Virus record (IMG/VR): IMGVR_UViG_3300020426_000019
Location: 1 to 28,746 of that record
DNA: 28,746 nt
Source of the DNA: a virus
Taxonomy: Duplodnaviria; Caudoviricetes
Reading direction: 5' to 3' (one strand)
The notes below the pieces were generated by a model that ran no database searches, was not told the DNA's origin, and was given only the letters and a program-made list of their open reading frames with translations. Below, piece by piece: positions 9,499 through 28,273 of the stretch (the stretch's first letter is position 1; the number at the start of each line of letters is the position of its first letter). A program made the position numbers and the translations under genes.

Positions 9499-9530
9499 GG
9501 CTGCCCGGTTGGGCAGTGAGAGGGATGGTG

Positions 9531-10828: not shown

Positions 10829-10845
10829 TTGCCGGACGTAAAGCT

Positions 10846-11265: not shown

Positions 11266-11368
11266 AAGTTAACGTCCTTCGCGGGAGGGTGCACCGACCC
11301 GACCCGCCACCCGCGATGTGCGGGGCGGGCCGATGCGCAGTGACCGGCTGCTGCCGGAATGGAGAGAA

Positions 11369-11812: not shown

Positions 11813-11881
11813 GGTATTTCTCCTGTGTGGCGAGCCGGACTATCCGGCGGAAACCGTCCGCGCGGGCGGACGAAGGTCGTA

Positions 11882-12064
11882 TCAGGCCTTCTTGGTATCG
11901 GCCTTGGCGTCGGCGGCGCCGGTGGCGGCTTCTACCAGCCCGGCCGCCGCGTAATTGGTGAACTCGCCGTCGGTCAGGTCGATCGCCTCGCCGGCCGCAT
12001 AGCGTTTGTTCGTGCCGGCATCGTTGAAGTTGCGCAGCACCTTCGCCTTCTTCATGGTGGACAT
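11882..12064 (-). CDS. Small phage protein (60 aa)
   Basis: AGGAG RBS before ATG 12064; KVLRNFNDAGT...YAAG..I motif, typical of small head/tail-region proteins. Confidence 0.7.
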   Translation of the reverse strand: MSTMKKAKVLRNFNDAGTNKRYAAGEAIDLTDGEFTNYAAAGLVEAATGAADAKADTKKA

Positions 12065-12077
12065 GGATATTCTCCTG

Positions 12078-12488
12078 CTAATCCTCAGCGTCCCAGCTGA
12101 TCTTGAAATCCTGTGTTTTTTCGAAGCTGCCGCCCGGGCCATTGACGTCAGGCCCCATGCCGGCGGTCAGGATCGACACGTTGCGCCCGCCGCCCAGCTG
12201 TCCGGTCTTCCCGGCGCACGCGCGCCGCACCGCCGCGATCACCGCCTTGCGATTGCGGTGACTGGCGGCGCGCACCGTGACGGAAACCCTGTCCGTACGC
12301 CGCACCAGCGCCTCGCGCGTCAGGGGCTGCCGATCAGTCGAACTGGTGCCATTCACCAGCAACGCGTCCAGCGCGATCCCTTCCGGCAACAAACCGGCCT
12401 TGATCCGCTCCGCGGGAACCAGCTGCAGCAGCGCGGCGTCCTCCAGCAACAGCGCGCCGATGATGTCGCTGCCTTCCAGCACCGTCAT
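12078..12488 (-). CDS. Tail terminator/completion protein
   Basis: Position and size (136 aa); ATGA coupling; DRVSVTVRA strand pattern. Confidence 0.75.
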   Translation of the reverse strand: MTVLEGSDIIGALLLEDAALLQLVPAERIKAGLLPEGIALDALLVNGTSSTDRQPLTREALVRRTDRVSVTVRAASHRNRKAVIAAVRRACAGKTGQLGGGRNVSILTAGMGPDVNGPGGSFEKTQDFKISWDAED

Positions 12489-13021
12489 TCCTCGCTCCCT
12501 TCGTCCGTGACGGCGATGCCGCGCCGGGAAACCCGCGCATTGATGTAAGCTTGGGCGGCGCGGATCGCGTCCTGCTCCTTCACGTCCAGCGCGGGCCGTA
12601 GGAACGGGTGTGGCCGCGCGCCGGGATGCCAGACCGTGCTGCCGACGAACTTGCCGCCGATCACCAGCGACGCATTTCCACCCGCCTCGCGCGTCTGGAC
12701 ATTGATACGGCGAACCGATCGACCCTCGCGCTGGCTGTCATCGACGCTGATGAAGTGTGCATCTGTGCCATATTCGAGCCACAGCGCTCGGGACCAGATA
12801 TAGCCAGGCTTCACCGTCACCGTGACGACTATCCGACCTTCATCCTGGCGCGACTTCACGATCACGGCTTCAGCAACGTCATCGGAAGCCGATCGGCTTT
12901 TTGCTTCCTCGGCGATCACCCTGCCGCCCGCGCGCCCCGCTCCGCGCAACATGCGCGTGATCTGGCCGGGAAGGTCGTTCATGTAGGCTCGGACTTCGCT
13001 TTTCCCCGTCACCGTCGGCAT
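12485..13021 (-). CDS. HK97 gp10-family neck protein (178 aa)
   Basis: WLEYGT and HPGARPHPFLRPALD motifs. Start re-assigned to ATG 13021 (TGATG overlap). Confidence 0.88.
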   Translation of the reverse strand: MPTVTGKSEVRAYMNDLPGQITRMLRGAGRAGGRVIAEEAKSRSASDDVAEAVIVKSRQDEGRIVVTVTVKPGYIWSRALWLEYGTDAHFISVDDSQREGRSVRRINVQTREAGGNASLVIGGKFVGSTVWHPGARPHPFLRPALDVKEQDAIRAAQAYINARVSRRGIAVTDEGSEE

Positions 13022-13368
13022 CACGCGGCATTCCCGGCCGGGCTGTACTCCTCGACCATGAACTCCAGCGCCTCGCGCCGGCCAAGCTCGGCGGGGCCAG
13101 ACACGATCTGCATAATACGGTCGCCCATGACAAAGCGCATGGCCGACGTGATGCCGGTGCGATAGCGGATGCGCACGCGCGCGGGACGCGCGGCGACGTT
13201 GATGCCCTCGGCAAGGCGCTCGCCCCGGCTGGGCAGCATGTCCTGCACATTCGCCCAGACGGTGATGACCGGCTCCCACTCGCCCGAACCGGCGGCGTCA
13301 AAGCCCTCGGCGGCTACAGGGCGCTCGATGCGCACCCGGCGGTCAAGCGTCCCTGCATCGAGCGTCAT
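13021..13368 (-). CDS. Head closure / head-tail adaptor (SPP1 gp16-like)
   Basis: AGTLDRRVRIER, VWANV and VRIRYRTGITSAMR motifs. Confidence 0.9.
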   Translation of the reverse strand: MTLDAGTLDRRVRIERPVAAEGFDAAGSGEWEPVITVWANVQDMLPSRGERLAEGINVAARPARVRIRYRTGITSAMRFVMGDRIMQIVSGPAELGRREALEFMVEEYSPAGNAA

Positions 13369-13970
13369 CAGCGATAGACCCTGTAGGGTTGGAGCAGGCT
13401 TTCCACCGTCGTTGACATGGGGATCGACGTCGCGGTGATGTTCATGTCCGACGCTGACGTGCGGAAGCGGTAGAGGTCGCCTACCATCAGCAGGATTGCG
13501 GCGCGGATCGGTGCGGGGATGTTGGGCACCACCGGATCGGCATCAGGGTTCACGGCATAACCAGCGCGATAGCGGATGCGAACGACATCAGCATCAGCAC
13601 CCCGCCACTGAGCGTTTGGCCACACGCGCGGCCATGCCGGGCGCAGCAATTGGCCCGCCAGTTCGTAGTCATCATCGGCGACGCTGGCGATCTCGCCCGC
13701 ACTGTCGACATATTCAATCGAAGCGATGTCGACGGCAGGCGGATAATCCAGCGCGATCGACGTGAGGCCGAAGGCGGGCAGGCACATCTCCAGCGTCTGC
13801 AAACCTATCGCCCGGCCAAGCCAGCCCGAAGGGCCGTCAATGTGAGCCGTAGCGGCGGCGATCAGCCCCTCGACAAAGGCCTGCTCGTCGTCACCATCCA
13901 GACGCAGATGCGTCTTCGCCTCTTCCCACGTCACGACGGGATCAGGCGGGGTGACGACGGTGACGCGCAT
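13368..13970 (-). CDS. Head-tail connector (HK97 gp6-like)
   Basis: VTWEEAKTHLRLD, LIAAAT and PAPIRAAILLMVGDLYRFR motifs. Confidence 0.9.
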   Translation of the reverse strand: MRVTVVTPPDPVVTWEEAKTHLRLDGDDEQAFVEGLIAAATAHIDGPSGWLGRAIGLQTLEMCLPAFGLTSIALDYPPAVDIASIEYVDSAGEIASVADDDYELAGQLLRPAWPRVWPNAQWRGADADVVRIRYRAGYAVNPDADPVVPNIPAPIRAAILLMVGDLYRFRTSASDMNITATSIPMSTTVESLLQPYRVYR

Positions 13971-14284
13971 CAGGCGATGACCGTCGCCGTCTCAGCCGAC
14001 ACCGCTTTGACGGTGTTGGCGCTGTTCAGTGCATTGGTGGCCGTCACCTCATAGGTGATCTTGGCGCCGACATCGCCAGCCTGAACGACATAGGTTGCAG
14101 CCGTGGCGCCGGAAATGGCAGCGCCATCGCGCAGCCAGCGATGGGCACTAACAGTGCCGTTGCGAACCGTCCCGCTTGCGCCCGTCAGGGTCTGGCCGAC
14201 CTGGGCGGTGCCGGTGATCGACGGCGCGGCGGTGAAAGCCGGCGCGCACATGAAGCCGCGCGAGCGCTGAGCGGAACGGGCCAT
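13970..14284 (-). CDS. Ig-like domain protein, probable virion decoration
   Basis: APSITGTAQVGQTLT...RWLRDGAAISGATAATY...DVGAKITYEVTATN. Confidence 0.8.
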   Translation of the reverse strand: MARSAQRSRGFMCAPAFTAAPSITGTAQVGQTLTGASGTVRNGTVSAHRWLRDGAAISGATAATYVVQAGDVGAKITYEVTATNALNSANTVKAVSAETATVIA

Positions 14285-14286
14285 GG

Positions 14287-14550
14287 TCAAGCGTCCTTGG
14301 TCTTGGGATCGGCGGCCTTCTTGTTGGCCGGCTCGGGCGCCTTCTTCTCGCCGCCCTCGGCCTTGCTCTCGTCGGGGTCGATGGTGCGCTGGCTGCCCGC
14401 TTCGACTTCCTTGGCCGTCGCCTCGCGCACCAGCTTCTTCTTCTCCAGTTCGGTGAACCGGGTCGAGGAAATGTCCCGCAGGATCATGCCGGCGGTGACG
14501 GAACCGTTATCGCCGTAGTGATCGTCCAGAACGTAGGCGTTCTTGCTCAT
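14287..14550 (-). CDS. Small post-capsid protein (87 aa)
   Basis: AAAGGAG RBS before ATG 14550; Lys/Ala/Pro-rich tail (KKAPEPANKKA). Confidence 0.75.
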   Translation of the reverse strand: MSKNAYVLDDHYGDNGSVTAGMILRDISSTRFTELEKKKLVREATAKEVEAGSQRTIDPDESKAEGGEKKAPEPANKKAADPKTKDA

Positions 14551-14602
14551 GTGCTGCTCCTTTCGGGTCATCAGCGCGGGGTTGCGCCGATGATCGGAAA
14601 GG

Positions 14603-14628
14603 GGGTCCATCGGAATTACGATGGACCC
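14603..14628 (-). terminator. Stem-loop after helper capsid gene (terminator/attenuator)
   Basis: GGGTCCATCG-6nt-CGATGGACCC, followed by a short CCTTT on the minus strand. Confidence 0.6.
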
Positions 14629-14640
14629 ACCTCCGTCAGG

Positions 14641-16008
14641 TCAGGCGATGACCAGCGAGCCCTTCACCAGAGCCGCCGGGCGGCGCACGACCAGCGCCAG
14701 GCGCTTCTCGGCACGAACCGTCAGCATGTTCTTGATGAAATTGTCGCGGTCCTGATCCGAGATGCGGACCTCGGTGTCCATGCGATCGAAGATCTGGCCG
14801 GCCAGCTTGAAATTGCCGGTCAGGAAGTTGTTCGCGCCGATGCGCTTGGTCGACACGACCGGGCGGCCCCAGAGGACCGGGCCAGCCACGCCCTGCGGAT
14901 TGGCGAAGATATAGCCTCCGGCCGCGTCCTTGGTCAGTTCGATGTTCGCCCACTGGGTGGGATGGATGACGATACCGTCGGGGGCGAAGTCGGCCAGCTC
15001 GACCTGCAGGATGGCGAGGCGCAGACGGTCAATCTTGGTTTCGCCCGAGATCGAGACGCCCGACGGCTGCGCATATGCGGTCGCCTGGGTATAAAGGCCA
15101 TTGAGATGCTGGCCGGTGCCGTCGCCAAGCAGAAGCTCGGCATCTTCGACGTCGTCCAGACCCCAGCGCAGTTCGCCATCGATCAAGCTTTCCAGCTGCG
15201 GGATATCGTCCATGGCCTGGCGCGAAACCGGAACCCAGTGTGCGATCGTGCGCACCGGGGCGTCATCCACGTCCCATTCATAGACCGATTCCGGCTTCTG
15301 GGCGCCCTCCGCCACAGGGGCGGCGTTGTTGGTGCGAGTCACCTGCTTGGCGAACTCGATCGAATTGCCATCGGTGCGGCCGGGCGTCAGCAGATCGCGA
15401 ACGCGCAGACCCATGCGCGGCATCGTCACGATATCGGACTGGCGGTCAGGACGGATCAGGCCACCTGCCGAGCCGGCAGCCGTGGTGACTGCCTTCACGC
15501 TGAAACCGATCGTGCCCTTGCATCCGCCATCGACATAGGCGCGCACCTCGTCGTGATTGGCGACTTCGACGCCCAGGCTTTTCAGCGCGGGCTGGTCATC
15601 ATCACCACCGCGGCGCGACTGGGCCAGCTTCTGCGACAGTTCGGTGATCTCGCCGCGCAGGCCTTCCAGTTCGGAAAGAGCCTTGTCCGCCTTTTCCTTG
15701 GTTTCGGTCGACACCTTTTCACCGGCTTCGCTCTTCGCCTTGAATTCCTTGGCGAACTCCTTCACCTCGCCGAGCGTTTCGCCCAGCTGCTTCTGAAGGC
15801 CCTCCAGCGTTTTGTCTTCCCCGTCGGGCGCTTTACGGCCGAATTCACGCGCCATCGGCAGCGCGGTCATGGCCATCGCGATTGGCCCGAATGCATCAGC
15901 GGAAGAGGCGGGGCTTAAATGCCCCAATGCAGTTGCGGCCATAGCCGCGTCCGGAATGACGGTAAGCGCCATCGCCACGGCAAGCGCCGCGAAGAGAAAA
16001 GTTCGCAT
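14641..16008 (-). CDS. HK97-fold major capsid protein of helper, with hydrophobic N-terminal leader
   Basis: VAEGAQKPES, TIAHWVPVSRQ, LLGDGTGQHL and DNFIKNMLTVRAEKR motifs; TAAGGA RBS supports the long start. Confidence 0.96.
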   Translation of the reverse strand: MRTFLFAALAVAMALTVIPDAAMAATALGHLSPASSADAFGPIAMAMTALPMAREFGRKAPDGEDKTLEGLQKQLGETLGEVKEFAKEFKAKSEAGEKVSTETKEKADKALSELEGLRGEITELSQKLAQSRRGGDDDQPALKSLGVEVANHDEVRAYVDGGCKGTIGFSVKAVTTAAGSAGGLIRPDRQSDIVTMPRMGLRVRDLLTPGRTDGNSIEFAKQVTRTNNAAPVAEGAQKPESVYEWDVDDAPVRTIAHWVPVSRQAMDDIPQLESLIDGELRWGLDDVEDAELLLGDGTGQHLNGLYTQATAYAQPSGVSISGETKIDRLRLAILQVELADFAPDGIVIHPTQWANIELTKDAAGGYIFANPQGVAGPVLWGRPVVSTKRIGANNFLTGNFKLAGQIFDRMDTEVRISDQDRDNFIKNMLTVRAEKRLALVVRRPAALVKGSLVIA

Positions 16009-16018
16009 GATGATTTCC

Positions 16019-16741
16019 TTAGTCGGCGGACTTCAGGGAGAAGCCGGCCAGGGTGTCCGAGAGGCCTTTAAGGGCCGGGGTGATCGTCGTATCGCGCTCG
16101 GACTCCCTCCGGCGCAGTTCAGCCAAGCCGCTGCCGACGAGGCCAGCGGCACGGGTCTTCGAGAAACCTGCATCCCGCAGGAACTTCTCAAATTCTCGAT
16201 CAGTGGGCAGCTCGCCATGCGCAAGCTTGAATTTGACGGCTTCGACCCGCGCATCATCATTGGCGGGGAAGGTGACGAGGCTGATCTCGACAAGGTCCAA
16301 CTTCGTCAGTGTGCGGATGCCGGTCTTCTCGTCATAGGACGATTCACGCACCCAATACCCAATGGATAGGCCGGTCACGGTGCGGGCCTTCATGTGCGCA
16401 TAGGCGCGCTTTTCCATCTCGCCGGCATCCAGCAGGATCTGGCCTTCGCCGAAAAGGCCGTGATCGTCCTCTTTCAGATTGGCCCACGCACCGATCGGCT
16501 CACTGCTGCGATGCTGCCATAGGACAGGGACGGGACGCCCCTTCGCTGCCAGCTCGGCCAGGCTTTCGGTGAACGCTCCTTTGGCGACCACTTCCTGATA
16601 GCTGTCGACCACGTCCCAGACGGAGCCATAGCCGTTGAACTTGCCGTCTTCCGAAACCGCTTTGATCTCGAAATCGAAGTCGCGGACCTTGAGTGCCCCG
16701 CTGTGCTTGCGCCCGAAGGCGCGATCAATACGCATCGTCAA
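16019..16741 (-). CDS. HK97-family prohead protease (helper)
   Basis: FNGYGSVW, LWQH, GLSIGY and EISLVTFPAND motifs. Confidence 0.95.
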   Translation of the reverse strand: MTMRIDRAFGRKHSGALKVRDFDFEIKAVSEDGKFNGYGSVWDVVDSYQEVVAKGAFTESLAELAAKGRPVPVLWQHRSSEPIGAWANLKEDDHGLFGEGQILLDAGEMEKRAYAHMKARTVTGLSIGYWVRESSYDEKTGIRTLTKLDLVEISLVTFPANDDARVEAVKFKLAHGELPTDREFEKFLRDAGFSKTRAAGLVGSGLAELRRRESERDTTITPALKGLSDTLAGFSLKSAD

Positions 16742-18102
16742 TCCTCCAGGCGCGGGCCGCCATTGTGGTTCATCAGCGCCGCTTTCACGCGGGCATCAAT
16801 CAGGCTGTCAACATCGCCGCCGAACAGCAGGTTCATCAGCGCCGATCGGGCACCCTGTTCCGGCGCGTCGACCTGTCCCAGCTTGTCGAGCGGGACGAGG
16901 TTGGACTGCACCGTAAGGAAATCGTCGCCCGGCAGCGAAGGCAGGTTCTCGCGGTTGCGCATTTCGCCGCGCGTCATCACACCATTCTGGCCGAAGGCGG
17001 AATAGAGCGCCGCGCGCGCCGCGCTGTCCGCCGCCATCAGCGCCTCGCGGTTGATCTCGGGATAGACCCGCTTGCGTTCGGCCACCGGCAGCAGTTGCTT
17101 TTTCACGGCCTGCTGGATGTTTGTGAGCAGCGGATTGAGCAGCAGCGTCTGCCAGCCGAGCAGCAGTTGCTCAATGCCACTGCCCCACATCGTCTGCCCT
17201 TTGGCGGCGTGCCCGATCAGCATCGGAAGGACGCCGAACCAGCGGCAGATTTCCTCCACATCCCAGGCGCGAGACTCCAGAAGCTGCGCATCGGCAGGGC
17301 TCATCTTGATCGGATGGAACTTGAAATCCTTTTCCAGCGGGACGATCCGACCGCGCATCGCGTCGCCCAGCCATGCATCAAAGATCGTCAGCAGGTCCGC
17401 GCGCTGTTCGGGGCTGAGCTTGGTGCTTCCCGTCTCCATCAGGCCCGCGATTTGCAGGCCGCCGCGAAAGGTGTCCGAGGCCGTCTTGTTCGCGGCAATT
17501 GCCCCGCCCAGCGTGCGCCGGCCGAACTCGATCGCCGACAGCCCCACATCGCCGCCTAGGGTCAGGCCGCGCAGGTGGAAAATCTTGTCCGCCGGCAGTT
17601 CCTCTGACTTGCCGCGATCCTGATAGATATAAACCCGCTCGTTACGGCTGTTGCGCTTGACCTGCATCAGGTCCGGCGCAAGCGGCGTCAGCGCGGTAAC
17701 ACGCGGCCCGAGCGTCTCCTTTTCCGCGAAGGCATTGCCCCACAGGTCCATGGCGGCCACCTGACCGGCCCAGAACTCGGCAGCGGTCTGGTCGCGGTTC
17801 GGCTCTTCGTGAACGAGCTCATAAAGCCAATGATCCTGCCGCGCTTTTCGCCCGCCATCGGACTTCTCGAACACGCCCATGCCCATCGCGCCTACGACAT
17901 CCGACCTAAGCCGGACGCAGGCCCAGGCGGTCGGTAGTCCCAGCGTCGTTTTCGCCGTGACAGACTGTCCGGCGCTGTCGATCCGGCTGCCGAGAGCGAT
18001 GGCCTTGCGGGTTGGCTCGTCTACAGGATCGCCGCTCAGCTTCCCATTCTGGCCGCTGCCGAACAGACGCAGGGTGGAGCCGACCCAAGTGCCGATACCC
18101 AT
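16738..18102 (-). CDS. HK97-family portal protein
   Basis: AWACVRL, IFHLRG, DAQLLESR, EEICRWFGV and MTRGEMRNRENLP motifs. Confidence 0.95.
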   Translation of the reverse strand: MGIGTWVGSTLRLFGSGQNGKLSGDPVDEPTRKAIALGSRIDSAGQSVTAKTTLGLPTAWACVRLRSDVVGAMGMGVFEKSDGGRKARQDHWLYELVHEEPNRDQTAAEFWAGQVAAMDLWGNAFAEKETLGPRVTALTPLAPDLMQVKRNSRNERVYIYQDRGKSEELPADKIFHLRGLTLGGDVGLSAIEFGRRTLGGAIAANKTASDTFRGGLQIAGLMETGSTKLSPEQRADLLTIFDAWLGDAMRGRIVPLEKDFKFHPIKMSPADAQLLESRAWDVEEICRWFGVLPMLIGHAAKGQTMWGSGIEQLLLGWQTLLLNPLLTNIQQAVKKQLLPVAERKRVYPEINREALMAADSAARAALYSAFGQNGVMTRGEMRNRENLPSLPGDDFLTVQSNLVPLDKLGQVDAPEQGARSALMNLLFGGDVDSLIDARVKAALMNHNGGPRLED

Positions 18103-18850
18103 CAGCCGGCCGCCTGCATCTGGGCTTTCAGACCGGAGATCAGGTCGTCCATATCGTCATTGTCGGCGGTGAGCGCCGCGACCCCGCGCGCCATGACTGC
18201 TGCGACCATGCCGTCGATCCTTCCTGTGGATTTGGCCTTGTCGAGCTTGCGGTTCCCGGCCGGGTCTTTCTTCACCACCGCGTTGGCGGCGCACATGGTC
18301 AGCACGGGGTTGCCGCCGTGCCGGACTTTCTCATTGAGGAAGTCGATCTCGATAAGGTCCATGGCCGGGGCCATGCTGATGAAGCCCTGCCCGAACGGCT
18401 CGAATGGCAATTCAATGCCGACCTTCTGCATCTGCGTTTCGAGCGTCTTGAAGCGGTGACGGTCATAGCCGATCTTGATGACCGGCACGCCCTCGCAGAT
18501 CCGCGCGATGTCGTGGGCGACATATTCGTAATCAACTGCGACACCGGGCGTCGTGTTGATGAAGCCCTTTTCAGCCCAGATGTCGTAGGGCACCCGATCG
18601 CGCTTCGCGTGATCCTTTAGCGTCGCGTCCGGCTTCCAGAACCACGCCCGCAGGTGCCAGACGCCATTCCAGAGCGCGGCCAATACGAAGGCGCAAAGGT
18701 CGGTCGTCTCCGCAAGGTCGAGACCGCCGTAGACTTCGCCCTTCTCGAACGCCTCGTCATCCGTGTCGCCAATGCAGGCGCCCCAGACGCTGGGCGAGAT
18801 GAACGGCGAGAAGCGGTTTACGCGCTGGTTCAGATAGAGGTTGCGGAAGC
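18102..18850 (-). pseudogene. terL: 3' half (nuclease domain) of terminase large subunit, interrupted by satellite insertion
   Basis: The frame of ORF 18102-18683 continues upstream through YGGLDLAETTDL to FRNLYLNQRV, then meets TAA TAG at 18860-18855. Also HGGNPVL and KSTGRIDGMVA motifs. No ATPase domain in the window. Confidence 0.92.
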
Positions 18851-18880: not shown

Positions 18881-20128
18881 TCAAGCCGCCGTGCGCAATT
18901 CTTGCGTAATTGAAGGGAGCATGATCATCGCCGCCGATCGGTCTATCGCAGTCACGCGATGTTCTCGGCCGCGAATCGCATGGGTATAAACCCGCGCCGT
19001 GATTTCGACATTAGCATGCCCCAGCAGCCGCGACACCTCAGCCAGCGTGGCTCCTGCATCTAGCCAAGCGCTACCAGCGAAATGCCGTAGGGCGTGAAAA
19101 TTTCGATTTCCGCGATCGGTCTTCGGAATGCCAGCTGCGCGCAGCAACTTATACCACTTATCATAAAAATCCTGAGAGCTCGGGTTGGTATTGAGACTGG
19201 TCCTGAAGATCAGGCCTCGCTCATTGGCGAGCATATACGGCTCCCACTCCCTCAGGGCCGCCATCACCGGATCAGGCATCGGGACGATACGGATACCCGA
19301 AACCGTCTTCGTCGGCCCCAAGTGGTCGTCCTCTGACAGGCTGGCATCGATCGTGATGGCCTTTGCCTCCCAGTCGATGCGGTCCGGCCGCAAACCCAGG
19401 ATCTCGCCTTTGCGCATGCCGCAGAAGGCCGCGAGGTAGACGACGGCGCGCAGGAAGGCTTGCGTGCGCTGTGTCGGCATCCTCCGCGAAGTATTTTCAA
19501 ACCATGCCTCGATTGCAGCGGTCACGCGCTGCATCTCTTCGATGGTGAATGTTTCGATAGGAGCCTTTGCAAGCAGGCCTATCTCCCGGCGAGCCTCACT
19601 GGCGGCGTTCCTGCCCACAAAGCCCCTCCGTGCCGCCCAAGCAAGGGCCGACGTCAGCCAGCCGAGCGAGTTATCAATCGTGCCATTGGCCATCTTCCTG
19701 CCAACCTTCGGCGTGTGGCCGGGGAACGCCCGGAAAACGACATTCGTGTCCCGCAGCCGGTCCACCTCCGAAGCGATCATCTGCCACGTCAGGTCCGTCA
19801 GTTTTACGTGGCCGATGTTCCGTGCGAAATGGTTTAGTCCGCGCGCGACATTTTTGATGCCAGCCTCCTTGCGTTCACCGCGTGCGGCGCGGGAGTATTG
19901 GGCAGCAATGTAGGCCTCCGCCAACTCGTTTAGCGTCAGAGTCTGGGCCGGTGCGATATGCGATCCAGCCTCCAACTCGTTCTCAACTTGGCGCCGGTAG
20001 TCGTCTGCGGCCTTTTTCCTGTCGAACTGCCGCGACCGATGCGCGCCAGCCTTGTCCTTGTAGCGAACGACCCACGCGGTTTTCGTCTCGCCCTTGTACG
20101 TCCATTCACGCTTGGCAACCGATGCCAT
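18881..20128 (-). CDS. int: Tyrosine recombinase/integrase (415 aa)
   Basis: GMRKGEILGL (R), PTKT (K), HALRH, LGHA and VYTH motifs; N-terminal arm-binding WVVRYKD...RSRQF. Start re-assigned to ATG 20128 after GGAGGA. Confidence 0.96.
   Translation of the reverse strand: MASVAKREWTYKGETKTAWVVRYKDKAGAHRSRQFDRKKAADDYRRQVENELEAGSHIAPAQTLTLNELAEAYIAAQYSRAARGERKEAGIKNVARGLNHFARNIGHVKLTDLTWQMIASEVDRLRDTNVVFRAFPGHTPKVGRKMANGTIDNSLGWLTSALAWAARRGFVGRNAASEARREIGLLAKAPIETFTIEEMQRVTAAIEAWFENTSRRMPTQRTQAFLRAVVYLAAFCGMRKGEILGLRPDRIDWEAKAITIDASLSEDDHLGPTKTVSGIRIVPMPDPVMAALREWEPYMLANERGLIFRTSLNTNPSSQDFYDKWYKLLRAAGIPKTDRGNRNFHALRHFAGSAWLDAGATLAEVSRLLGHANVEITARVYTHAIRGREHRVTAIDRSAAMIMLPSITQELRTAA
18892..18911. 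repeat. Tandem 9-bp direct repeat, candidate integrase arm-type sites
   Basis: TGCGCAATT (18892-18900) and TGCGTAATT (18903-18911), ~40 bp from the att core. Confidence 0.45.
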
Positions 20129-20180: not shown

Positions 20181-20375
20181 TTATTGGGCGTGGGCCATAT
20201 TTGCGAAGTTCTCGACCGATTCCGCGATGCGCTTGGCATGGGACACGATCCCGTAAAGCGCGTCCGTCGCGGGGCCGTCGAAGTTCGCCGCGACGATGGC
20301 CAAGCCAGTCGCCATATTGCTGATCTCCAGCGATAGATCGGCCAGCCGCTCCGCCTCCTTTTCGCTGACCGTCAT
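20181..20375 (-). CDS. Small helical hypothetical protein (64 aa)
   Basis: ATGA-coupled to the upstream gene. Confidence 0.7.
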   Translation of the reverse strand: MTVSEKEAERLADLSLEISNMATGLAIVAANFDGPATDALYGIVSHAKRIAESVENFANMAHAQ

Positions 20376-20662
20376 GCGCCATACCCTCGGTCAAGTTCGA
20401 TCTTCTGGAACAGGTCGATGCAGACGGCGACCTGTGCGCGCATGATGTTCAGCAGGGAACACATAGTGCCCCAGTCCTCCGCCTCTGACAGTGGCGGCAG
20501 CTTCTCGATGATCCCCATACGGCGCGCATCAAGATCGTTCTGGCGGATCGAACACATGGCCAGTTCGGTGGCGCTGATTAAAGCGTCGATGTGATCGGCG
20601 GCGATGCCGCCATTCATGGCCTTTTCTCTCAGGGTCATGCCTGGCTGGACTGCCTCAATCAT
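20372..20662 (-). CDS. Hypothetical protein (96 aa)
   Basis: GGGAGGG RBS before ATG 20662 (MIEAVQPG...); overlaps the upstream stop. Confidence 0.7.
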   Translation of the reverse strand: MIEAVQPGMTLREKAMNGGIAADHIDALISATELAMCSIRQNDLDARRMGIIEKLPPLSEAEDWGTMCSLLNIMRAQVAVCIDLFQKIELDRGYGA

Positions 20663-20840
20663 GGGCCTGCCCTCCCGTGTGGAGAATGGCCCCGGCCGCG
20701 CTGTCGCGTTCGCCGATCGACCAGATGGCCTCCCAGGCGCGCAGGTGCGCCGCGTTGGTCGGGTCAAAGGAGGGGACACCCGCGCGCAGCTTCAGGCTGG
20801 CGCGTGGCTCTCTGCTGGGCAGAGCTATCACGTTGTCCAT
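20655..20840 (-). CDS. Small protein (61 aa), positional analogue of P4 kil / P1 icd
   Basis: First ORF after the downstream antisense target; no sequence similarity recognised. Confidence 0.6.
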   Translation of the reverse strand: MDNVIALPSREPRASLKLRAGVPSFDPTNAAHLRAWEAIWSIGERDSAAGAILHTGGQAHD

Positions 20841-20870: not shown

Positions 20871-20897
20871 AGCCTATTCCCCGTATCGGACGGGGCG

Positions 20898-20977
20898 CCG
20901 GGAGGGTCAGAGCCGGCCAGTGAGACCGGTGGAACGCTTTTACCTCGAAAGGCTATTGCATGGCGCCCCACTCCCGG
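20898..20977 (-). ncRNA. c4/CI-like antisense immunity RNA (~80 nt)
   Basis: Closing stem CCGGGAG/CTCCCGG; inner stem GTGGGGCGC/GCGTTCCAC capped by CCT-TTCG-AGG; CCGG stem presenting CTCACTGG; unpaired CTCTGAC. Both exposed segments are complementary to flanking direct repeats. Confidence 0.75.
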
Positions 20978-21061
20978 ACATAAAGGTCCGGTCAGCGATG
21001 GACGCCAATCCACGCTGTTACATTCGGCGATCATGCCCGCGCCAACGGGTCTGATCGCCTA

Positions 21062-21147: not shown

Positions 21148-24100
21148 CTATTTGGCCACGCCCGCCACACTGACCGCTTGGCCGCCGCTCGCGCTGGTCA
21201 CGTCGTCCAGCTTCCGGGCCATCTTGCCCGCGTGCCCGGCCGTGGCGGCATGGCCTGAATTATTCTCGCTGCGCAGCTGCGCCACCTCTTCCCGGAGCGC
21301 CCGAAGTTCCGAAGCCAGATTGTCGTTCGACGCGGTCGCCGGCGCCGCCTGTGCCGTGGTCGCCGCCGCCGCCAACGTCACCGCCTCCGGCGTCCCTCCG
21401 GTCAGGATCGCGCCGGACGTGCCGCGCGCGGCGTCCACCACGGACGAACCGCCGGCGGCGCGCGCCGTTTCCTCCAGACTGGCTGCGATCATCGCCTTTA
21501 CACGATCGAGCTCCTGCCGGCTGGTCGCGCTAAGCTCCGCCGCTTCGATGAGCGATTGCGACAGTCCGACCAACTCGCGCGCTGCGTCCTGGTCGCCGCC
21601 CTTCGCCGCGGCGGTGGCGGCATTGAACTGGCTCATGATCGCCGCGAAGCTGCCCCCGTCGGTCGGATCGGTGATGCCCCGGATCCGGTTCACTTCGTCC
21701 ATGATCGTGTCGCCGACCGATGCCCAGGCGTCGCGCAGCTGCTGCGCCGCCGCCGCCGCGTCCGCTGCATCCTCCAGCGCCCATACCTGCTCCTGAAGCG
21801 GGCGCAGGCTGGCCTCCATCTGTTCCAGCTCGATCTGGCGCATGGCGACCGTCGATTCCAGCGTCTTGCCCTGAAGCTCCATGATCCGCGCCTCCAGCGT
21901 GCGCCGGTCGCGGCTCAGGCTTTCCGTCTCGGCATTGGCCTCCTTTAGCGCATCGATGCGCTTGAGGTCGTATAGCTGCTGAAGCTGGGCATATTCCTCC
22001 GCCGACGCGCCGGCCTGGTCGAAGGTCTTGCGCAGCTGCGCGAACTCCTTGTCGAGGGACTCGATCGCGAAGCCCACCGGATCGGTCATGCTCTTGAGCT
22101 CGGAAAACACGCCCTCGAATTGCAGGGCCTTCGCTAGCTGCGCCTCCACGTCTAGGCCACCCTGGATCAGCGTCTGCGTGGACGCCCGGAGCCCCAACAG
22201 CGCGCCATCGCTGATCGCGTCGGCGATCGCGAACTTGATAGCATCCTCTGCGCCGTCCGTTCCGAAATCCTTGATGTCGGTGCGGCTGGACCCGCCCTTG
22301 AGCTTGCCGGTGCGGCCGATGGTCGAAACCCGCCACTTGTCCTTATACTGGCCGATGGACACGTTATAGGCCCCGATGTCCGCGCCCAGCTGATCGGCGA
22401 TTGCCTGCAACCCGCCCTGGATCGAATCTGCCGCCAGGCTGGCGTTCGATCGATAGGCGGCCTTGTTGCCGGCCGTGGCGATGCTGGCGGCATCCTGACC
22501 GGTGACGACAGACGTTCCCCACTTCGCCTTGCTGAACAGGCCGCTCAGCGCCCCGCCCAGGACGCCGCCGACGATGGAGCCCAGCGGGCCGGCGAAGTCG
22601 CCCAGGCCGCCCAGCGCCTTCGACAGGAACTTCTCGCCGATCTTTTCGCCGACCGCGCCACCCGCGAAACTGGCGAGGTCGCTGTTCTGCGATCCCCATA
22701 GGGCGTTGCCAGCCAGCGAGCCCACGCCGCCCGCCGCGAAGGTCTTTTGCATGATCCGGGCGAAACTGCCGTCGCCGGACGTGCCGAATATGGCGTCCAG
22801 CTTGTCCGTCACCTCCTTCCACCCGTTCTTGCCCACGCCCATGGCGCTCAGGCCGTCCAGCAGCTTGCCGGCCGTCCCGGACAGTCCGCCGAAGTCGCCG
22901 GTCGCGAACCCGCCCAGGATGCCCGCCAGCGCGGCGGCAGGCCCGCCCATCGCCTGCAGGGCGGATAGCTGGCGCAGATAGGTGTCCAGCAGCTGCTGCG
23001 CGCCCATCTGCTGCGCTTCCTCCAGCTGCAGGCGCTCATTCGCCTGGTCGATCATCTTTTCGCCCAGCGTGATCTCCTGCTTGCCGAACTCAAGGTTCCG
23101 CTTCGCCGCGTCCGCCGCCATCGTCCAGACGTTGCCCTGGGCCGTCATCTTCATGTCGTTCAGCCACTGCGCCGTCTTGATAAGCTCCTTCAGCGCATCG
23201 TCTGCGGCCTTGGTCGACACCTTCGCCTTCTTCGTCTGGAGGATCAGGCCCCGATCGAGCGACGTGCCGACGCCATCAAGGATGCGCTGCGCGGATTCGT
23301 AGGTCTTGAGGTTTTCGCCTTCGACCGCGAAATTTGCGACGGCGGCAGCGGCCTCCGAAAATGCCTCTGCCGTCATGAGCCCGCCCTGCTGCAGGCTCTC
23401 CAGCGAGCGCAGCACGCTCTTGCTATCCGTGCCGCCCCCCAGGAACGAAGACATGAGGTCGCGGGTCGTCCAGCTGCCGTAGAGCGTCTTCTTGCTGCTG
23501 AACATGCCATAGAGCCCGTCGGTGAAGCCCAGCGTGCCCGCATCCTTGATCTGCGCCCGCGCCTCCGCCTGCCGCGTCTGCGCCTGGACGCGCGCGACCG
23601 CCAACTGCGCCTGCGCAAGCCCCATCATGGCGCTGCTCTGATTGATGACCTTCCCGGTGGTGAGGTCGAGCACATTGCCAAGAATGCCCTGCGCATCGCC
23701 CACGGCGCTGGAGGAAAACTTGACCTGATCGAGCGCGTCGGAGGTGTCCATGAGCTCCGCCGCGAAGCCAGCCGCCAAGGTGCCGGCCAGCGTGAGCGCT
23801 ATGCCCCACGGGCCGTTAAGGAACCGGCCGACCGAGCCCAGCTTGCCCTCAAACCCTGTGAGCGCGCCGGCCGCCTGGGGCGCCTGCATCGCGAAGGCGC
23901 GCAGCGCAGACGTTCCGCCCACAACCTGGACGGCGAAGTCCTGCACCTGGAAGCCGAGATTTTGCGTGGCCGCGCGCGCCGCGTTGGACGACTGGCTTAG
24001 GCTGCCATGGCCACGGGCGAGCATCATCTCAACGCGGGCCAGCTCTTCACCGCTCGCGCCGGCCGCCTGCATGACGCGTCGGGCTTCCGCGATTTCCTGA

Positions 24101-24684
24101 TTGAGCCTTTCCTGCGCGGCGGCGGCGGGATCGAGCATGGCGCGCAGCTGGGCAAGCGTCTGCGCATCGCGCGCGGCGGCCGTCTCCTGCTCACGCATGG
24201 CGAACGCACCCGCCTTCACGCGCTCTTCGAACATGCGATGGGCCTGCGCCGCGGCGCGGTTCGCTGCCGTCAGCTGATCGAGCTCGGCGATCTGTCCGCG
24301 CAGCCGGCCGGCCAGCTCGGGGAGATTGCTCTGCTCTGCGTTGAGGGCGGCGGTCTCGACCTTCAGGCGCTGTATCTCCGCGCGGGACATGCCGAAGGTC
24401 GAGATTTGCCGCTCCATCTGGCGTGAGAGGGACTCGCCCGCCTTTTCGACTTTGGCCAGGTCTAGCGCAGTCCTAGTTGCGGCGTGGCGGTAGCTGTCCA
24501 TCTGGATGACGGCGCCGCTCATGGTGACGTTTCCAGCCGCCTGTTCCAATTTTTGGAAGTCGCGCACAGCGTTTGCGGCGGTTTCGCCGATGATGTCATC
24601 CAGCCGCGCCAACTGACCGAACGAATCGCCGAAGCCGATGTCAAAGCCGACGCCAAGGGCGGGCTGTCCGTCATTGTCGTTCAT
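21148..24684 (-). CDS. Satellite-encoded tape measure protein (1178 aa)
   Basis: QNLGFQVQDFAVQ...AFAMQAPQ TMP motif; N-terminal ~130 aa and C-terminal ~250 aa clearly homologous to helper TMP. Confidence 0.93.
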   Translation of the reverse strand: MNDNDGQPALGVGFDIGFGDSFGQLARLDDIIGETAANAVRDFQKLEQAAGNVTMSGAVIQMDSYRHAATRTALDLAKVEKAGESLSRQMERQISTFGMSRAEIQRLKVETAALNAEQSNLPELAGRLRGQIAELDQLTAANRAAAQAHRMFEERVKAGAFAMREQETAAARDAQTLAQLRAMLDPAAAAQERLNQEIAEARRVMQAAGASGEELARVEMMLARGHGSLSQSSNAARAATQNLGFQVQDFAVQVVGGTSALRAFAMQAPQAAGALTGFEGKLGSVGRFLNGPWGIALTLAGTLAAGFAAELMDTSDALDQVKFSSSAVGDAQGILGNVLDLTTGKVINQSSAMMGLAQAQLAVARVQAQTRQAEARAQIKDAGTLGFTDGLYGMFSSKKTLYGSWTTRDLMSSFLGGGTDSKSVLRSLESLQQGGLMTAEAFSEAAAAVANFAVEGENLKTYESAQRILDGVGTSLDRGLILQTKKAKVSTKAADDALKELIKTAQWLNDMKMTAQGNVWTMAADAAKRNLEFGKQEITLGEKMIDQANERLQLEEAQQMGAQQLLDTYLRQLSALQAMGGPAAALAGILGGFATGDFGGLSGTAGKLLDGLSAMGVGKNGWKEVTDKLDAIFGTSGDGSFARIMQKTFAAGGVGSLAGNALWGSQNSDLASFAGGAVGEKIGEKFLSKALGGLGDFAGPLGSIVGGVLGGALSGLFSKAKWGTSVVTGQDAASIATAGNKAAYRSNASLAADSIQGGLQAIADQLGADIGAYNVSIGQYKDKWRVSTIGRTGKLKGGSSRTDIKDFGTDGAEDAIKFAIADAISDGALLGLRASTQTLIQGGLDVEAQLAKALQFEGVFSELKSMTDPVGFAIESLDKEFAQLRKTFDQAGASAEEYAQLQQLYDLKRIDALKEANAETESLSRDRRTLEARIMELQGKTLESTVAMRQIELEQMEASLRPLQEQVWALEDAADAAAAAQQLRDAWASVGDTIMDEVNRIRGITDPTDGGSFAAIMSQFNAATAAAKGGDQDAARELVGLSQSLIEAAELSATSRQELDRVKAMIAASLEETARAAGGSSVVDAARGTSGAILTGGTPEAVTLAAAATTAQAAPATASNDNLASELRALREEVAQLRSENNSGHAATAGHAGKMARKLDDVTSASGGQAVSVAGVAK

Positions 24685-24782: not shown

Positions 24783-25997
24783 TTATGCGACGTTGCCGAA
24801 GTCGCCGTAGATGAACGAATTCGGTCGCTTCTTGCCCAAGCCAATTCGCTTCTCAGCCCTTATCGTGAGCTTGTTGCGCACGAAATTGTCACGGTCCTGG
24901 TCGGAGATGCGCACTTCCGTCTGCATCCGGTCATAGTAGGCCGCGCCACGCTTGAACGGCCCAACAAGGAACTTGTCGATATTCATGGCCTTGGTCGGCA
25001 CAACAGGCTGGCCGAAGAGGGTGGCGCGGTTCTGGCCCTGCGGATTGGCGATGATATAGCCGCCCGCTGCATCCTTGGTCAGAAGGAGGCGCAGCCAGTC
25101 GGACGGGTGGATGACGATGCCGTCCGGCTCCACGTCGGTTAGGGCCGCCTGAAGGAGCGCAAGCCCGATCTGGTCAATCATCGTCTGGCCTGCCACGGTG
25201 AACGGGGCGGCATAGGCGGTAGCGCCAACAGCCAGCCCGGTCAGATGCTCGCCGGTGCCGTCGCCATAGATCAACTCGGCTTCTTCGTTCAAATCGAGGC
25301 CGTAGCGCAGTTCACCGTCGATCAGGCCCTCCAGCTGCGGCACGTCGTCAATGATCTGGCGGGACGCTTCGACCCAGTGCGCGATGGTCCTGATCTTGGT
25401 GTCCTTCAATTCCCACTTGTAGGACGATTCCGGCTTCAGCGCGCCTTCTGCGACAACCCCGGCCGCGTTCGTCCGCTCGGTCTGAACCGGCGTTTCAACG
25501 ACGCCGGTTTCCGTATTGATGATGGTCAGCAGATCCCGGACCACCAGCCGACGCTGCGGCATGGATACCACTTCATCGCGCTGCGGCACGATCAGGTCGC
25601 CAGCCGAGGCGCCGCTGTCGATTGCCTTCATCGCGCACCGCATTTCGCGCGGCCGGTCCTGCGCCTCCATGTCCACATAGGCTTTGAAGCGTTCGGAATC
25701 GGTGAACTGGCGGCCCCATGCCGTGGCCCCCGGATCGCCCAGCATCGAAACGGCCCCGCGCTGGCCTTGCGCCATCTTCTGCGACAGTTCGGTGATCTCG
25801 CTGCGCAATTCGCCCAAGCGCTCATCGGTGGACTTCTCGCCCTCCTTCACCTTTTCCAGCGCCTTGGTGACGGTGGCGATATGCTCATCCAGCACGTCCT
25901 CGACGCTCTTGGCGTTCTTCGTTTTGACGATCGGGATATCCAGATGGGCGCTGGCGCGCATGGCGGCGCGGAACTTCAACAGACGGTCGGTAAACAT
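24783..25997 (-). CDS. Satellite HK97-fold major capsid protein (404 aa)
   Basis: VAEGALKPES, TIAHWVEASRQ, YGDGTGEHL and EVRISDQDRDNFVRNKLTIRAEKR motifs; GGGAG RBS. Confidence 0.95.
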   Translation of the reverse strand: MFTDRLLKFRAAMRASAHLDIPIVKTKNAKSVEDVLDEHIATVTKALEKVKEGEKSTDERLGELRSEITELSQKMAQGQRGAVSMLGDPGATAWGRQFTDSERFKAYVDMEAQDRPREMRCAMKAIDSGASAGDLIVPQRDEVVSMPQRRLVVRDLLTIINTETGVVETPVQTERTNAAGVVAEGALKPESSYKWELKDTKIRTIAHWVEASRQIIDDVPQLEGLIDGELRYGLDLNEEAELIYGDGTGEHLTGLAVGATAYAAPFTVAGQTMIDQIGLALLQAALTDVEPDGIVIHPSDWLRLLLTKDAAGGYIIANPQGQNRATLFGQPVVPTKAMNIDKFLVGPFKRGAAYYDRMQTEVRISDQDRDNFVRNKLTIRAEKRIGLGKKRPNSFIYGDFGNVA

Positions 25998-25998: not shown

Positions 25999-26616
25999 TT
26001 ATTTCACTCCCATGAGAGTTGCGATGTTTCGGGTGGATTGCGCCAGGCGCTCGGCGACCTGCGCCATAGCCTGATCGTCTTTTGCTTCGTCGGCGGCGCG
26101 AAAGGCGGCGGCGGCGGCGGCCTTGGCGCGGCGACCGGACAGGCCGATCTCCCGCAGGTGATCCTCAAGCTCGCGGACATTCGCCACGGACTTGACCTGC
26201 TCGACATAGGTGAGAGGGTTGGAGGGGATCGCGACCAACGAGATTTCCCATAGGTCGGCCTTTGTGATGACCTTGCCTCTGGCTTCGCGCTGGAGATAGC
26301 CGACCGACAGGCCGGTGAGGGCGCCAGCTTTCGCAAGCGCATACGCCTCTTGCCCGTCGGGCGCGCTCAGCGCCAACGTGCCGGATGCGTGAAGCCCTTT
26401 GCTGTTTTCCGCCAAGCTATCCCACTTCCCAACAGGGCGGGATTTATCGTGGTGCAGCAGCATGGCGACGGGCCGGGATCCGCGAAGGCTCTCGGTAAAT
26501 GCGCCGGGCGCGAACGTCTCGCCATGGCTGTCGACATTGCCATAGCCAGCCGCAAGGCCGGATATCTGACCCTCGGCCAGCTTCTTCAAATCTAGGGGGT
26601 GGTAAGCGTGTTCCAT
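25999..26616 (-). CDS. Satellite HK97-family prohead protease (205 aa)
   Basis: MLLHHD...PVGKW, GLSVGY and EISLVAIPSN motifs. Confidence 0.93.
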   Translation of the reverse strand: MEHAYHPLDLKKLAEGQISGLAAGYGNVDSHGETFAPGAFTESLRGSRPVAMLLHHDKSRPVGKWDSLAENSKGLHASGTLALSAPDGQEAYALAKAGALTGLSVGYLQREARGKVITKADLWEISLVAIPSNPLTYVEQVKSVANVRELEDHLREIGLSGRRAKAAAAAAFRAADEAKDDQAMAQVAERLAQSTRNIATLMGVK

Positions 26617-26755: not shown

Positions 26756-27157
26756 TTAGTGCGCCTTCGACGTTTCTTCGATTGCGTCGCCATTCTGGTC
26801 CACGAGTGTTGCCAACCCTCGCAACCAGTGCGCGGCACCAGCCGCGCCGCGCGTCCGGGCGACCCGCTCCACAAGGGTGTTGCCGATTGTTACGACTGCG
26901 ATGCGCTCATCCACGCCCGCGACCATGAGCGAATTGATAAATTCATGCGCCTTGCGGGCTAGATCGACCATCTCCCTCTCGTCCATGGACATGGGATCGC
27001 GCGGCCCCGCCACCTCGATCTTACCAGCCTCGACCCGGAGGCCCGCGGCAAGCGCCGAATGGGTTACTCCCCCTGCTTCGATGAGCTCGCGGGCAAGATT
27101 TGCGATGGCAGTGCAGAAATTTCGGATGGCCTCTGGCTTGTGTTCGTCATTCAGCAT
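26756..27157 (-). CDS. Hypothetical helical protein (133 aa)
   Basis: AAGGAG RBS before ATG 27157 (MLNDEHKPEA...). Confidence 0.75.
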   Translation of the reverse strand: MLNDEHKPEAIRNFCTAIANLARELIEAGGVTHSALAAGLRVEAGKIEVAGPRDPMSMDEREMVDLARKAHEFINSLMVAGVDERIAVVTIGNTLVERVARTRGAAGAAHWLRGLATLVDQNGDAIEETSKAH

Positions 27158-27240: not shown

Positions 27241-27325
27241 AAAACTGTATTAGCAAACACTTTCGGGTCGGGAGCGGTGTCCTATCGGAGGGCGCTCCAA
27301 CTTTGCGACCACCCCCCACCCTGGG
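27241..27325 (-). other. Putative cos-like packaging site of the satellite
   Basis: Intergenic GGGTGGGGGGTGGTCGCAAAGTT...GGACACCGC...GCTAATACAGTTTT resembles sequence I recall upstream of terS in HK97-like cos phages; pattern recognition only. Confidence 0.45.
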
Positions 27326-27329: not shown

Positions 27330-27536
27330 TCAGGCCGGCCGGACGGCTTCGACCATCGCCTTGACGACACGGCGCGCCTTGGCCATCCCGACACGGCTGG
27401 CCAGCTGTTCGAAACAGATCATCATGAGCGTCGTCGTGGCTCGCGCCTGGTCGGCGCCCTCGTCGCCAGCGGCCATGATGAACGCATCGTGCAAGCGGCG
27501 AGCTTCAAGGCAAAGCTTCTCGTTCTCGGTCATCAT
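27330..27536 (-). CDS. Hypothetical helical protein (68 aa)
   Basis: ATGA-coupled to the Bro-N gene (MMTENEKLCLEARR...). Confidence 0.7.
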   Translation of the reverse strand: MMTENEKLCLEARRLHDAFIMAAGDEGADQARATTTLMMICFEQLASRVGMAKARRVVKAMVEAVRPA

Positions 27537-28273
27537 GCGCCCGCCTTCAACTCTGCCAGCCGCGCCAAGCCTTTCGGCGTCACCACGACCTGTTCGACCC
27601 ACTTGTCGGGCCGGCCGCGCACGGTGATGGTCGTGCCCTTGTGCTCCAGCAGCTTGGCTTCCAGCTTTGCGCCGAACGCGACGAAGTGGCCGCCTTCGCT
27701 GCGCCGGTATATCCAGTGATTGGCCTCCATCCACGCGAACAGGCGGCGCGGCTGGGCGTTCAGCGCCTTTGCCGCGTCGGTGATGCACAGGGAGCCGCGG
27801 GCATCGGTCAGTCGATCGAGCGCTTCGGCCTTCGGAGATAGCTTTGCGATCTGCTCGCTGGCATTCATGGTCCGGCTGGTATGCTCCAATAGCAGGCGCT
27901 GGAGCGTCGCCGGATCGTTGAGGTCCAGCGACGGAGCGGGGCTGCCATACTGCCCGGTCCGCAAGACGGTCGGCACAACCTCTGCTGTGATCCACTTGCG
28001 CACACGGTATGGCAGGGTGCCGGGCTTCATCGCGCCCCGGCAACGCAGCATCAGCGTCAGCAGTCCCGCGAGACTGACGATCGTGGCATCCGATCCCGAC
28101 CCTAGGTTTAACCGAGACTTCTCGGTGTCATCCAAACGGCTGGCCGCATCGCTGGGATTGCGGATGCCGAGCAGGCCGCAAGCGTCGGCAAGGACGAACC
28201 ACGGCTGGCCGCCCTGGTCGCTGATCGCCCTGATAGCGTGGCTCTCGAACTGGAAAGGGATGATGTCATTCAT
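27533..28273 (-). CDS. Bro-N / KilAC (ANT) antirepressor-like protein (246 aa)
   Basis: PWFVLADACGLLGIRNPSDA and RKWITAEVVPTVLRTGQY (Bro-N); PKAEALDRL...ITDAAKAL...VTPKGLARL (KilAC). Start at ATG 28273. Confidence 0.92.
   Translation of the reverse strand: MNDIIPFQFESHAIRAISDQGGQPWFVLADACGLLGIRNPSDAASRLDDTEKSRLNLGSGSDATIVSLAGLLTLMLRCRGAMKPGTLPYRVRKWITAEVVPTVLRTGQYGSPAPSLDLNDPATLQRLLLEHTSRTMNASEQIAKLSPKAEALDRLTDARGSLCITDAAKALNAQPRRLFAWMEANHWIYRRSEGGHFVAFGAKLEAKLLEHKGTTITVRGRPDKWVEQVVVTPKGLARLAELKAGA

Follow-up and report, generated by a model that had tools for sequence, protein, structure and literature searches.

A phage satellite within a helper terL gene carries a mosaic tape measure protein with helper-type ends

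Introduction

The tape measure protein (TMP) sets the length of a phage tail, at about 0.15 nm per residue. Satellites of the cf-PICI group encode their own portal, connectors, HNH protein and two terminase subunits; their integration sites lie in chromosomal genes. The subject of this report is a satellite of 10,453 bp in a viral record of the Caudoviricetes, IMGVR_UViG_3300020426_000019, whose whole length of 28,746 nucleotides is called the window here. The element is inserted within the terL gene of its helper, is completed by an overlapping viral contig (L001), and contains a TMP gene of its own. The favoured reading, held with a probability of roughly 0.6, is that this helper-ended and foreign-cored TMP is built into tails made from helper parts; it draws on sequence comparison and on analogy with described satellites. 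The closest of these are the HE-PICIs, PLEs, cf-PICIs and EPIPs.

The HE-PICIs were surveyed in Enterobacteriaceae by Tommasini, Mageeney & Williams (2023, PMC10111431), and non-Enterobacterales integrases below the cut-off were discarded in that survey. Like the present element, the HE-PICIs are about 10-11 kb long, lie in and co-oriented with a helper late gene (terL sites included), and leave the target gene broken while integrated, with no replacement sequence. A Bro-family gene, an own capsid gene, a cos region common with the helper and a doubled arm motif are further likenesses. One HE-PICI supplement profile, Sen15553.16.A_Terminase_1_132, lists TAC and PhageMin_Tail (PMC10111431). However, the HE-PICIs described there are from Enterobacteriaceae only, whereas the present integrase belongs to an alphaproteobacterial integrase clade. 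The integrases are unrelated beyond the catalytic motif. The best BLASTP match with 11capE has E 0.02 over 30 aa, and the 11capE integrase, the single HE-PICI integrase compared, gave no match to the hidden Markov model (HMM) of the clade at E 10. The HE-PICI gene order is int-alpA-Bro-primase-late; here it is xis-initiator-Ant-late-int, with no primase. The doubled TGTATTGC motif that flanks HE-PICI attP has 0 copies in L001 and 3 in the 11capE region, and a different arm-like repeat is found here. Membership in the HE-PICIs was rejected on these four differences of integrase, gene order, primase and arm motif; the element appears to work similarly.

The PLEs of Vibrio cholerae, which exploit phage ICP1 (Mathur, Boyd et al., Nature 2026, PMC12987554), carry their own TMP and use helper tail parts; the present element also carries its own TMP and would likewise rely on the tail parts of its helper. 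The PLE11 TMP is 95 aa shorter and the PLE11 tails are ~10 nm shorter. This TMP is found in virions, and its deletion cuts transduction by about 99.9%. In contrast to the present case, the PLE helper is lytic with a contractile tail, the PLEs are not embedded in it, and the helper capsid protein is used. Their tmp gene occurs with tac (and bhuB), whereas here the TMP gene has no recognisable chaperone gene beside it. The PLE TMP is only about 20% identical to that of ICP1; the ends of the present TMP are 45-70% identical to the resident helper.

Among the cf-PICIs and other Gram-negative PICIs, an HK97-type capsid, a protease and a gene with a TMP domain occur together as they do here, for example in Kpn27.17.fis, Yen44.16.fis and EcCI11368 (PMC10111431). 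The tmp genes of cf-PICIs are noted in a figure legend (PMC12987554, Extended Data Fig. 10). However, none of portal, connectors, terS and terL is recognisable in the complete 10,453 bp, and cf-PICI membership was rejected on this ground; the element depends on the terminase gene that it interrupts. The EPIPs of Mycolicibacterium aichiense (PMC12822802) resemble the element in their length of about 11 kb, their temperate siphophage helper, their TMP and their altered tail length, which for the present element is a prediction. They differ in their serine integrase, terS, head-to-tail adaptor and stopper; the present element has a tyrosine integrase, and those genes are not recognisable. The EPIPs are also actinobacterial, have longer tails, and are not reported as embedded in a helper in the main text.

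According to the first-pass annotation of the window, no characterised proteobacterial satellite is known to carry exactly this module. This was too strong, since embedding and a satellite TMP have each been published separately: the Vibrio PLEs carry their own TMP (PMC12987554), and TMP domains occur in the gene profiles of several enterobacterial PICIs and of one terL-embedded HE-PICI (PMC10111431). The term 'Sphingo' is absent from the text and supplement of PMC10111431, and the tape measure is unmentioned in its main text. A literature search, with most subscription papers outside it, found no report of an alphaproteobacterial embedded satellite, a terL-embedded TMP satellite or helper-matched TMP ends. 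The element combines two published satellite strategies, in a lineage for which no report was found.

Results

Comparison of the two tape measure proteins

Both TMP open reading frames (ORFs) of the window are Ala/Gly-rich. The helper TMP gene lies between the tail chaperones and the tail-tip gene; the satellite copy follows a second protease and capsid gene pair. The N-termini, satellite residues 3-313 and helper residues 2-402, share 32% identity (E 4e-30). The C-terminal 229 aa of the satellite TMP are 69% identical to the helper TMP, and the 3' ends of the two genes share 73% DNA identity across 704 bp (E 3e-113). In the centres, no composition-adjusted BLASTP segment was better than E 0.01, and a forced global alignment gave 27-35% identity, which is near background for Ala/Gly-rich proteins. 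BLASTP without composition adjustment still chained a long 30% segment through the centre. The two proteins are also unlike in their predicted membrane segments. The first-pass annotation had described alignable N-termini, highly similar C-termini, dissimilar centres and lengths of 1178 and 1678 aa, all of which were borne out, with the N-terminal similarity extending to about residue 313.

The satellite protein matched no TMP model in Pfam, PHROG or NCBIfam, and a search of GenBank phages with the TMP matched nothing. It is identified as a TMP by its homology to the helper TMP (phrog_7740), to relatives bearing PF06791/PF20155, and to the TMP of L122, which lies in a normal tail operon and is 70% identical to the C-terminal half of the satellite TMP.

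The ends and the core have different closest relatives. A search with the C-terminal 229 aa gave 358 matches, in which the helper TMP of the window came first after the gene's own near-copy. It outranked P0003 and P0002, which have 75% and 83% of the satellite core in common; the core is 75-96% conserved in P0001-P0003. With the core (300-950), the helper was absent among the best 120 of 227 matches, and many top core relatives have different ends. As a control, 80 family members with C-termini 60-80% identical to that of the helper were compared over the preceding 650 aa. Their median identity there was 64.5%, and only 5 of the 80 were at or below 35%, whereas the satellite has 30%. This argues for mosaicism and not for ordinary terminal conservation. 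By these comparisons, the satellite TMP is a mosaic of helper-matched ends and a foreign core.

The matching of ends recurs in the 11 satellite/helper pairs available. Among the 11 helpers, the own one was the top match of the C-terminal 200 aa in 8 pairs and of the N-terminal 100 aa in 7, where 1 is expected by chance. The length of the satellite TMP minus that of the helper TMP was -500, -509, -315, -2, -2, +15, +236, +45, +5, +5 and +195 aa. In the seven alignable pairs dN/dS was 0.13-0.33 with intact ORFs, and the C-terminus of the window pair gave 0.27 at a dS of about 0.9. The codon changes show that the mosaic TMP is under purifying selection.

Integration site and gene content of the element

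The limits of the element were completed with L001, which is 99.7% identical to the window across 17.6 kb and extends 3.8 kb further. The order in L001 is helper HNH, terS, terL ATPase half, element and terL nuclease half, and the insertion is in frame. The terL halves cover phrog_9 positions 183-447 and 444-674. Since the 7-bp core stands in the same terL phase at both junctions (Table 1), a crossover there would yield a 528-aa frame. The 5' terL frame ends at a stop a few codons past attL, and the target gene is therefore broken while the element is integrated. The first satellite bases past attL (L001 3225-3242) resemble the terL sequence after attR at ~12 of 18 positions; this degenerate copy of the target ends in a stop and leaves terL unrepaired. 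The 18-bp arm-like repeat had 2 matches, versus 0 in 100 shuffles, with a pattern built from those two copies. Both junctions were bridged in a second sample (X2 records, L001 2943-3784 and 12800-13777). The satellite identity proposed by the first-pass annotation, as opposed to a decayed prophage, is upheld by the precise att cores, the arm repeats and the intact ORFs; the integration inside the helper terL gene had been missed. The region is present in two marine metagenome runs of one study. Close relatives of the helper TMP carry the name Sphingobium, and the helper is likely a sphingomonad prophage.

The genes of the element are all co-oriented and intact. Their order is xis-like helix-turn-helix (HTH) gene, O-like initiator, Bro/ANT antirepressor, small ORF, cos-like site, 133-aa ORF, protease, capsid, TMP, three small ORFs and tyrosine integrase. 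L001 3218-3774, which is outside the window, contains attL, the terminator-like hairpin, the left arm repeat, the xis-like HTH gene and the start of the initiator. In the complete element, as found in L001, there is no recognisable portal, terminase, connector, tube, chaperone or primase. The earlier statement that the TMP gene is its only tail gene thus holds for the whole element and not just for the visible part. The small ORFs matched neither the helper chaperones nor PHROG or Pfam, a comparison that a divergent chaperone could escape. L195, in which the three small ORFs are 86-95% identical, has a different integrase.

A structured RNA candidate lies ahead of the small-gene module. Its match to sRNA-Xcc1 (29 bits versus a gathering score of 53, E 0.18) is below the Rfam threshold, and the fold of the surrounding 276 nt has a z of -4.4. 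At the gathering threshold, Rfam found nothing in 7 related loci. The RNA candidate and the three small ORFs may be an immunity module like P4 CI, by an analogy taken from PMC10111431.

Putative packaging site and terminator-like hairpin

The cos-like pattern occurs 2 times in L001 and 0 times in 100 shuffles, and was derived from those two sites. The pattern was found at 122 sites in viral contigs. Of these, 39 had terS/terL at most 1.5 kb downstream, and 38 had HNH just upstream; many of the other sites are probably chance occurrences or have short flanks. By permissive BLASTN, a cos-like stretch common to the element and its own helper was found in 9 of 10 related elements, while the more diverged L001 pair was missed. 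From its position, the site is inferred to be the putative packaging site.

A terminator-like hairpin with a T run was found at L001 3269-3296, ~50 bp inside attL, and such a hairpin lies 45-65 bp inside the left end in all 11 elements checked. In the excised circle it would come after int; in the integrated form it would halt helper late transcription. For HE-PICIs, helper late read-through into the satellite has been proposed (PMC10111431), to which a terminator-like hairpin just inside attL is the opposite.

Related elements of the integrase clade

Loci were fetched with an alignment of integrase homologues, and 97 of them scored at least 250 bits. Removal of redundancy left 84, and in 75 the frame that follows the integrase could be assessed. 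In 39 of the 75, this frame is a phage late gene whose profile match begins midway, a sign of truncation; the count is biased by viral contigs (9 among the 22 loci from cellular genomes). The truncated genes were terL (18), portal (8), capsid (6), protease (5), virion protein (1) and fibre (1). Two of the 75 frames were host-gene-like, and the rest were unassigned, full genes or probably the wrong frame. In L065 and L206, terL is cut at the same profile position as in this element. The integrase profile was found in 2 of 401 genomes; only 4 candidates per genome were scored, and thus no prevalence figure follows.

Upstream DNA was long enough in 23 elements; of their 160 candidate ORFs, 66 were picked by size and position and searched. 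A PHROG TMP match was found in 14 elements, a weak tail match in 1 and none in 8, and a capsid gene was present in 19. Ten relatives of ~7.5-11.3 kb have the same layout. For G406, G004, G407, G005, G001 and G003, the top cores from automated att mapping were doubtful, and five of these six were inspected by eye.

Several single loci showed features of their own. In L005 (2819-4768) and L048 (3355-5424), the insertion is in a protease-capsid fusion gene; these elements carry their own fusion of the same PHROG family, so that the capsid cargo also tracks the helper type. The L005 TMP contains a peptidase domain. The member L293-L294 (G412) is 18.5 kb long, compared with the usual 10-11 kb, and has a 12-bp core and extra genes besides TMP. 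L069 and L080 are two clade integrases on one contig, which suggests that a single prophage region contains two embedded elements. The xis-like gene directly after the integrase of L070 could be an attP junction or a tandem. Host-like genes follow the integrase in L025 (6635-7684, SbcC-like) and L204 (3025-3858, FabG-like), and off-target integration is possible there.

Helper genes beside the tape measure gene

A low-GC insert, with a GC dip at the site, lies between the helper chaperone and TMP genes. The predicted fold of its predicted secreted protein is MliC-like (TM 0.55). The whole insert, 9516-10401, comprises two genes, both with homologues at the corresponding place in L059; the first has one in L008 as well. 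The second ORF, which had no HMM match, we take by eye to be HIRAN-like. In a screen for envelope-type ORFs at the chaperone-TMP gap, 8 of 11 helpers were positive with retuned thresholds, compared with 6 of 56 control TMP loci; the first version, with mis-called TMP starts, gave 4 of 11 and 2 of 59. The screen was post hoc, with a probable false positive (G407), three cases that were seen by eye and missed, and controls mostly of other TMP classes, and its outcome is a lead only. At the far end of the helper genes, the gene after the tail tip (window 3-1166, minus strand, open at the contig end) has a repeated unit and is probably a fibre or depolymerase.

Table 1. Features of the satellite and the helper, with positions in the window or in contig L001
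Feature	Position	Strand	Remarks
Satellite TMP, 1178 aa	21148..24684	-	helper-type ends, core from another TMP lineage
Helper TMP, 1678 aa	4441..9477	-	phrog_7740 E 4.5e-54; tail-tip gene 1391-4444 next
Helper terL 5' half (ATPase)	L001 2380-3246		phrog_9, Pfam TerL_ATPase
Helper terL 3' half (nuclease domain)	18102..18850	-	phrog_9, Pfam TerL_nuclease
attL core, 7 bp	L001 3218-3224		outside window
attR core, 7 bp	18844..18850 (L001 13671)	-	repeated at attL, same terL reading phase
18-bp arm-like direct repeat, right copy	18892..18909	-	left copy L001 3371-3388
Satellite replication initiator, lambda O-like winged HTH, 215 aa	28270..28746	-	PHROG replication-initiation E 7e-15; Pfam HTH_36
Bro-N/ANT antirepressor	27533..28273	-	Pfam ANT and Bro-N; phrog_130
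68-aa ORF	27330..27536	-	no family match
cos-like site	27246..27304	-	resembles helper HNH-terS intergenic site, L001 1825-1883
133-aa ORF directly past cos-like site	26756..27157	-	homologues in four other related elements; no family match
Satellite HK97-type prohead protease	25999..26616	-	39% to helper protease; TIGR01543 above cut-off
Satellite HK97-type major capsid protein	24783..25997	-	51% to helper capsid; TIGR01554 above cut-off
Structured RNA candidate ahead of small-gene module	20889..20979	-	weak sRNA-Xcc1 match
Three small ORFs (61, 96, 64 aa)	20181..20840	-	86-95% identical in L195; no family
Tyrosine integrase, 415 aa	18881..20128	-	
Helper portal, protease, capsid, connectors, major tail protein, tail chaperones	10415..18102	-	
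Low-GC insert between helper chaperone and TMP genes	9516..9881	+	predicted secreted 118-121-aa protein; candidate superinfection-exclusion moron

Discussion

The gene content and the integration site suggest a course of events in which helper packaging would wait for excision of the satellite. On induction of the helper, no DNA would be packaged by the helper until the satellite excises. The helper late transcript would likely stop at the terminator-like hairpin until excision, and in the meantime the capsid protein and TMP of the satellite would have an advantage in time. Once excision has restored the helper terminase, this enzyme would cut the cos-like site of the satellite and fill heads made of satellite capsid protein, which the helper portal and connectors would close. 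Through its conserved ends, the satellite TMP would contact the tail tip, chaperones and tube of the helper, in the manner of the PLE TMPs. Incorporation of the satellite TMP into such chimeric tails is rather probable by analogy with PLE11. Satellite tails of this pair would be about 50-75 nm shorter than those of the helper, at 0.10 nm/residue as in PLE11 or at the 0.15 nm/residue of general background. The point of the satellite TMP is probably its different core, that is the DNA-entry conduit including the predicted membrane segments, and not its length.

Several observations weigh against this reading. The satellite has no recognisable tail chaperone, while tmp is accompanied by tac in all PLEs. 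No explanation was found for how satellite heads are matched to satellite tails, and the same is true for the PLEs. According to PMC10111431, PICI capsid genes are dispensable for transfer. The TMP is optional among the relatives: 8 of the 23 inspected elements are without one. In 3 of the 11 pairs the C-terminus does not rank its own helper first; in two of them, G409 and G412, no match rose above background. Some pairs are not independent, since G408 and G410 have near-identical helpers, and the left end of G411 could not be mapped. The contigs of four runs on L001 1000-16500 contained the integrated form only, with no attB/attP joint and a flat depth, which says nothing either way.

Other roles of the satellite TMP were also considered. 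It might be a decoy or poison, with ends that bind the helper tip complex or chaperones and lower the helper yield, and would then be absent from infectious satellite tails. The same signature of matched ends would be expected, the satellite has no recognisable chaperone of its own, and tail-blocking satellites are known (Rta, PMC12987554; Tai, PMC11364771). However, a full-length gene of 3.5 kb would be needless for a poison, the core is conserved among the relatives P0001-P0003, and the TMP length is within 50 aa of that of the helper in 6 of the 11 pairs. This helper is moreover the only tail source of the satellite, and a poisoning role is therefore rather unlikely. To much the same degree it is improbable that the TMP is a captured working late gene with no special role, a spare from an earlier helper whose ends were refreshed by recombination on the shared DNA molecule. 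Late-gene capture has been proposed for HE-PICIs (PMC10111431), the eight relatives without a TMP fit such a history, and the TMPs of G001 and G407 are alike with those of their helpers along most of the length. Against a spare copy, many elements keep the TMP alone, without neighbouring tail genes, and the C-terminal dN/dS at the dS given above points to an old acquisition kept under selection and not to a fresh copy.

The first-pass annotation had proposed a tail hijack with shorter tails as its outcome. The use of helper tail parts is supported by the recurrence of helper-matched ends across the pairs. A purpose in shorter tails, whether as cheaper particles or as a length suited to a small genome, is very unlikely. 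The satellite copy is 315-509 aa shorter in the three pairs of this TMP class, but in the remaining eight it has the length of the helper TMP or exceeds it (-2 to +236 aa), and EPIP tails are longer than those of their helper (PMC12822802); short tails are thus not a general purpose. A decayed second prophage or an assembly chimera is the least credible account. The protease, capsid and TMP genes do stand in phage order, but the att cores and arm repeats bound 10,453 bp of intact ORFs, ten relatives share the layout, and both junctions were bridged in a second sample. The mapped ends effectively refute it.

If the satellite TMP is incorporated into tails, its mosaic form might be related to superinfection exclusion. 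An embedded satellite must inject into a helper lysogen, because its only attachment site lies in the helper prophage. In HK97, gene 15 occupies the gap between the genes for chaperones and TMP, and its block of injection depends on the tail (PMC3594210). TMP changes escape TP-J34 Ltp, and HK97 hybrids with the tube and TMP genes of HK022 escape gp15 (PMC10883804). Since TMP-directed morons sit at this gap in HK97, and the present helper has a candidate moron for a secreted protein there, it is conceivable, though the odds are against it, that Alphaproteobacteria evolved helper-embedded satellites independently and that helper-matched ends on a foreign TMP core get past the exclusion system of the helper. 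If true, this would be a concrete answer to why satellites replace the TMP, a question left open in PMC12987554.

With this element, the range of helper-embedded satellites would reach beyond Enterobacteriaceae and include Alphaproteobacteria, where the integrases form an unrelated clade. The unrelated integrases may indicate a convergent tropism for phage packaging and head genes. Prophages of this kind, with a split terL and duplicated capsid and TMP genes, will be mis-annotated as defective. They provide natural satellite/helper TMP pairs on single DNA molecules. In such pairs, the ends would mark the parts of a siphophage TMP that have to fit the tail tip and chaperones, and the core the part that is free to differ. 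The benefit that a satellite draws from a TMP of its own could be tested in cultured sphingomonads, such as the L005 strain.

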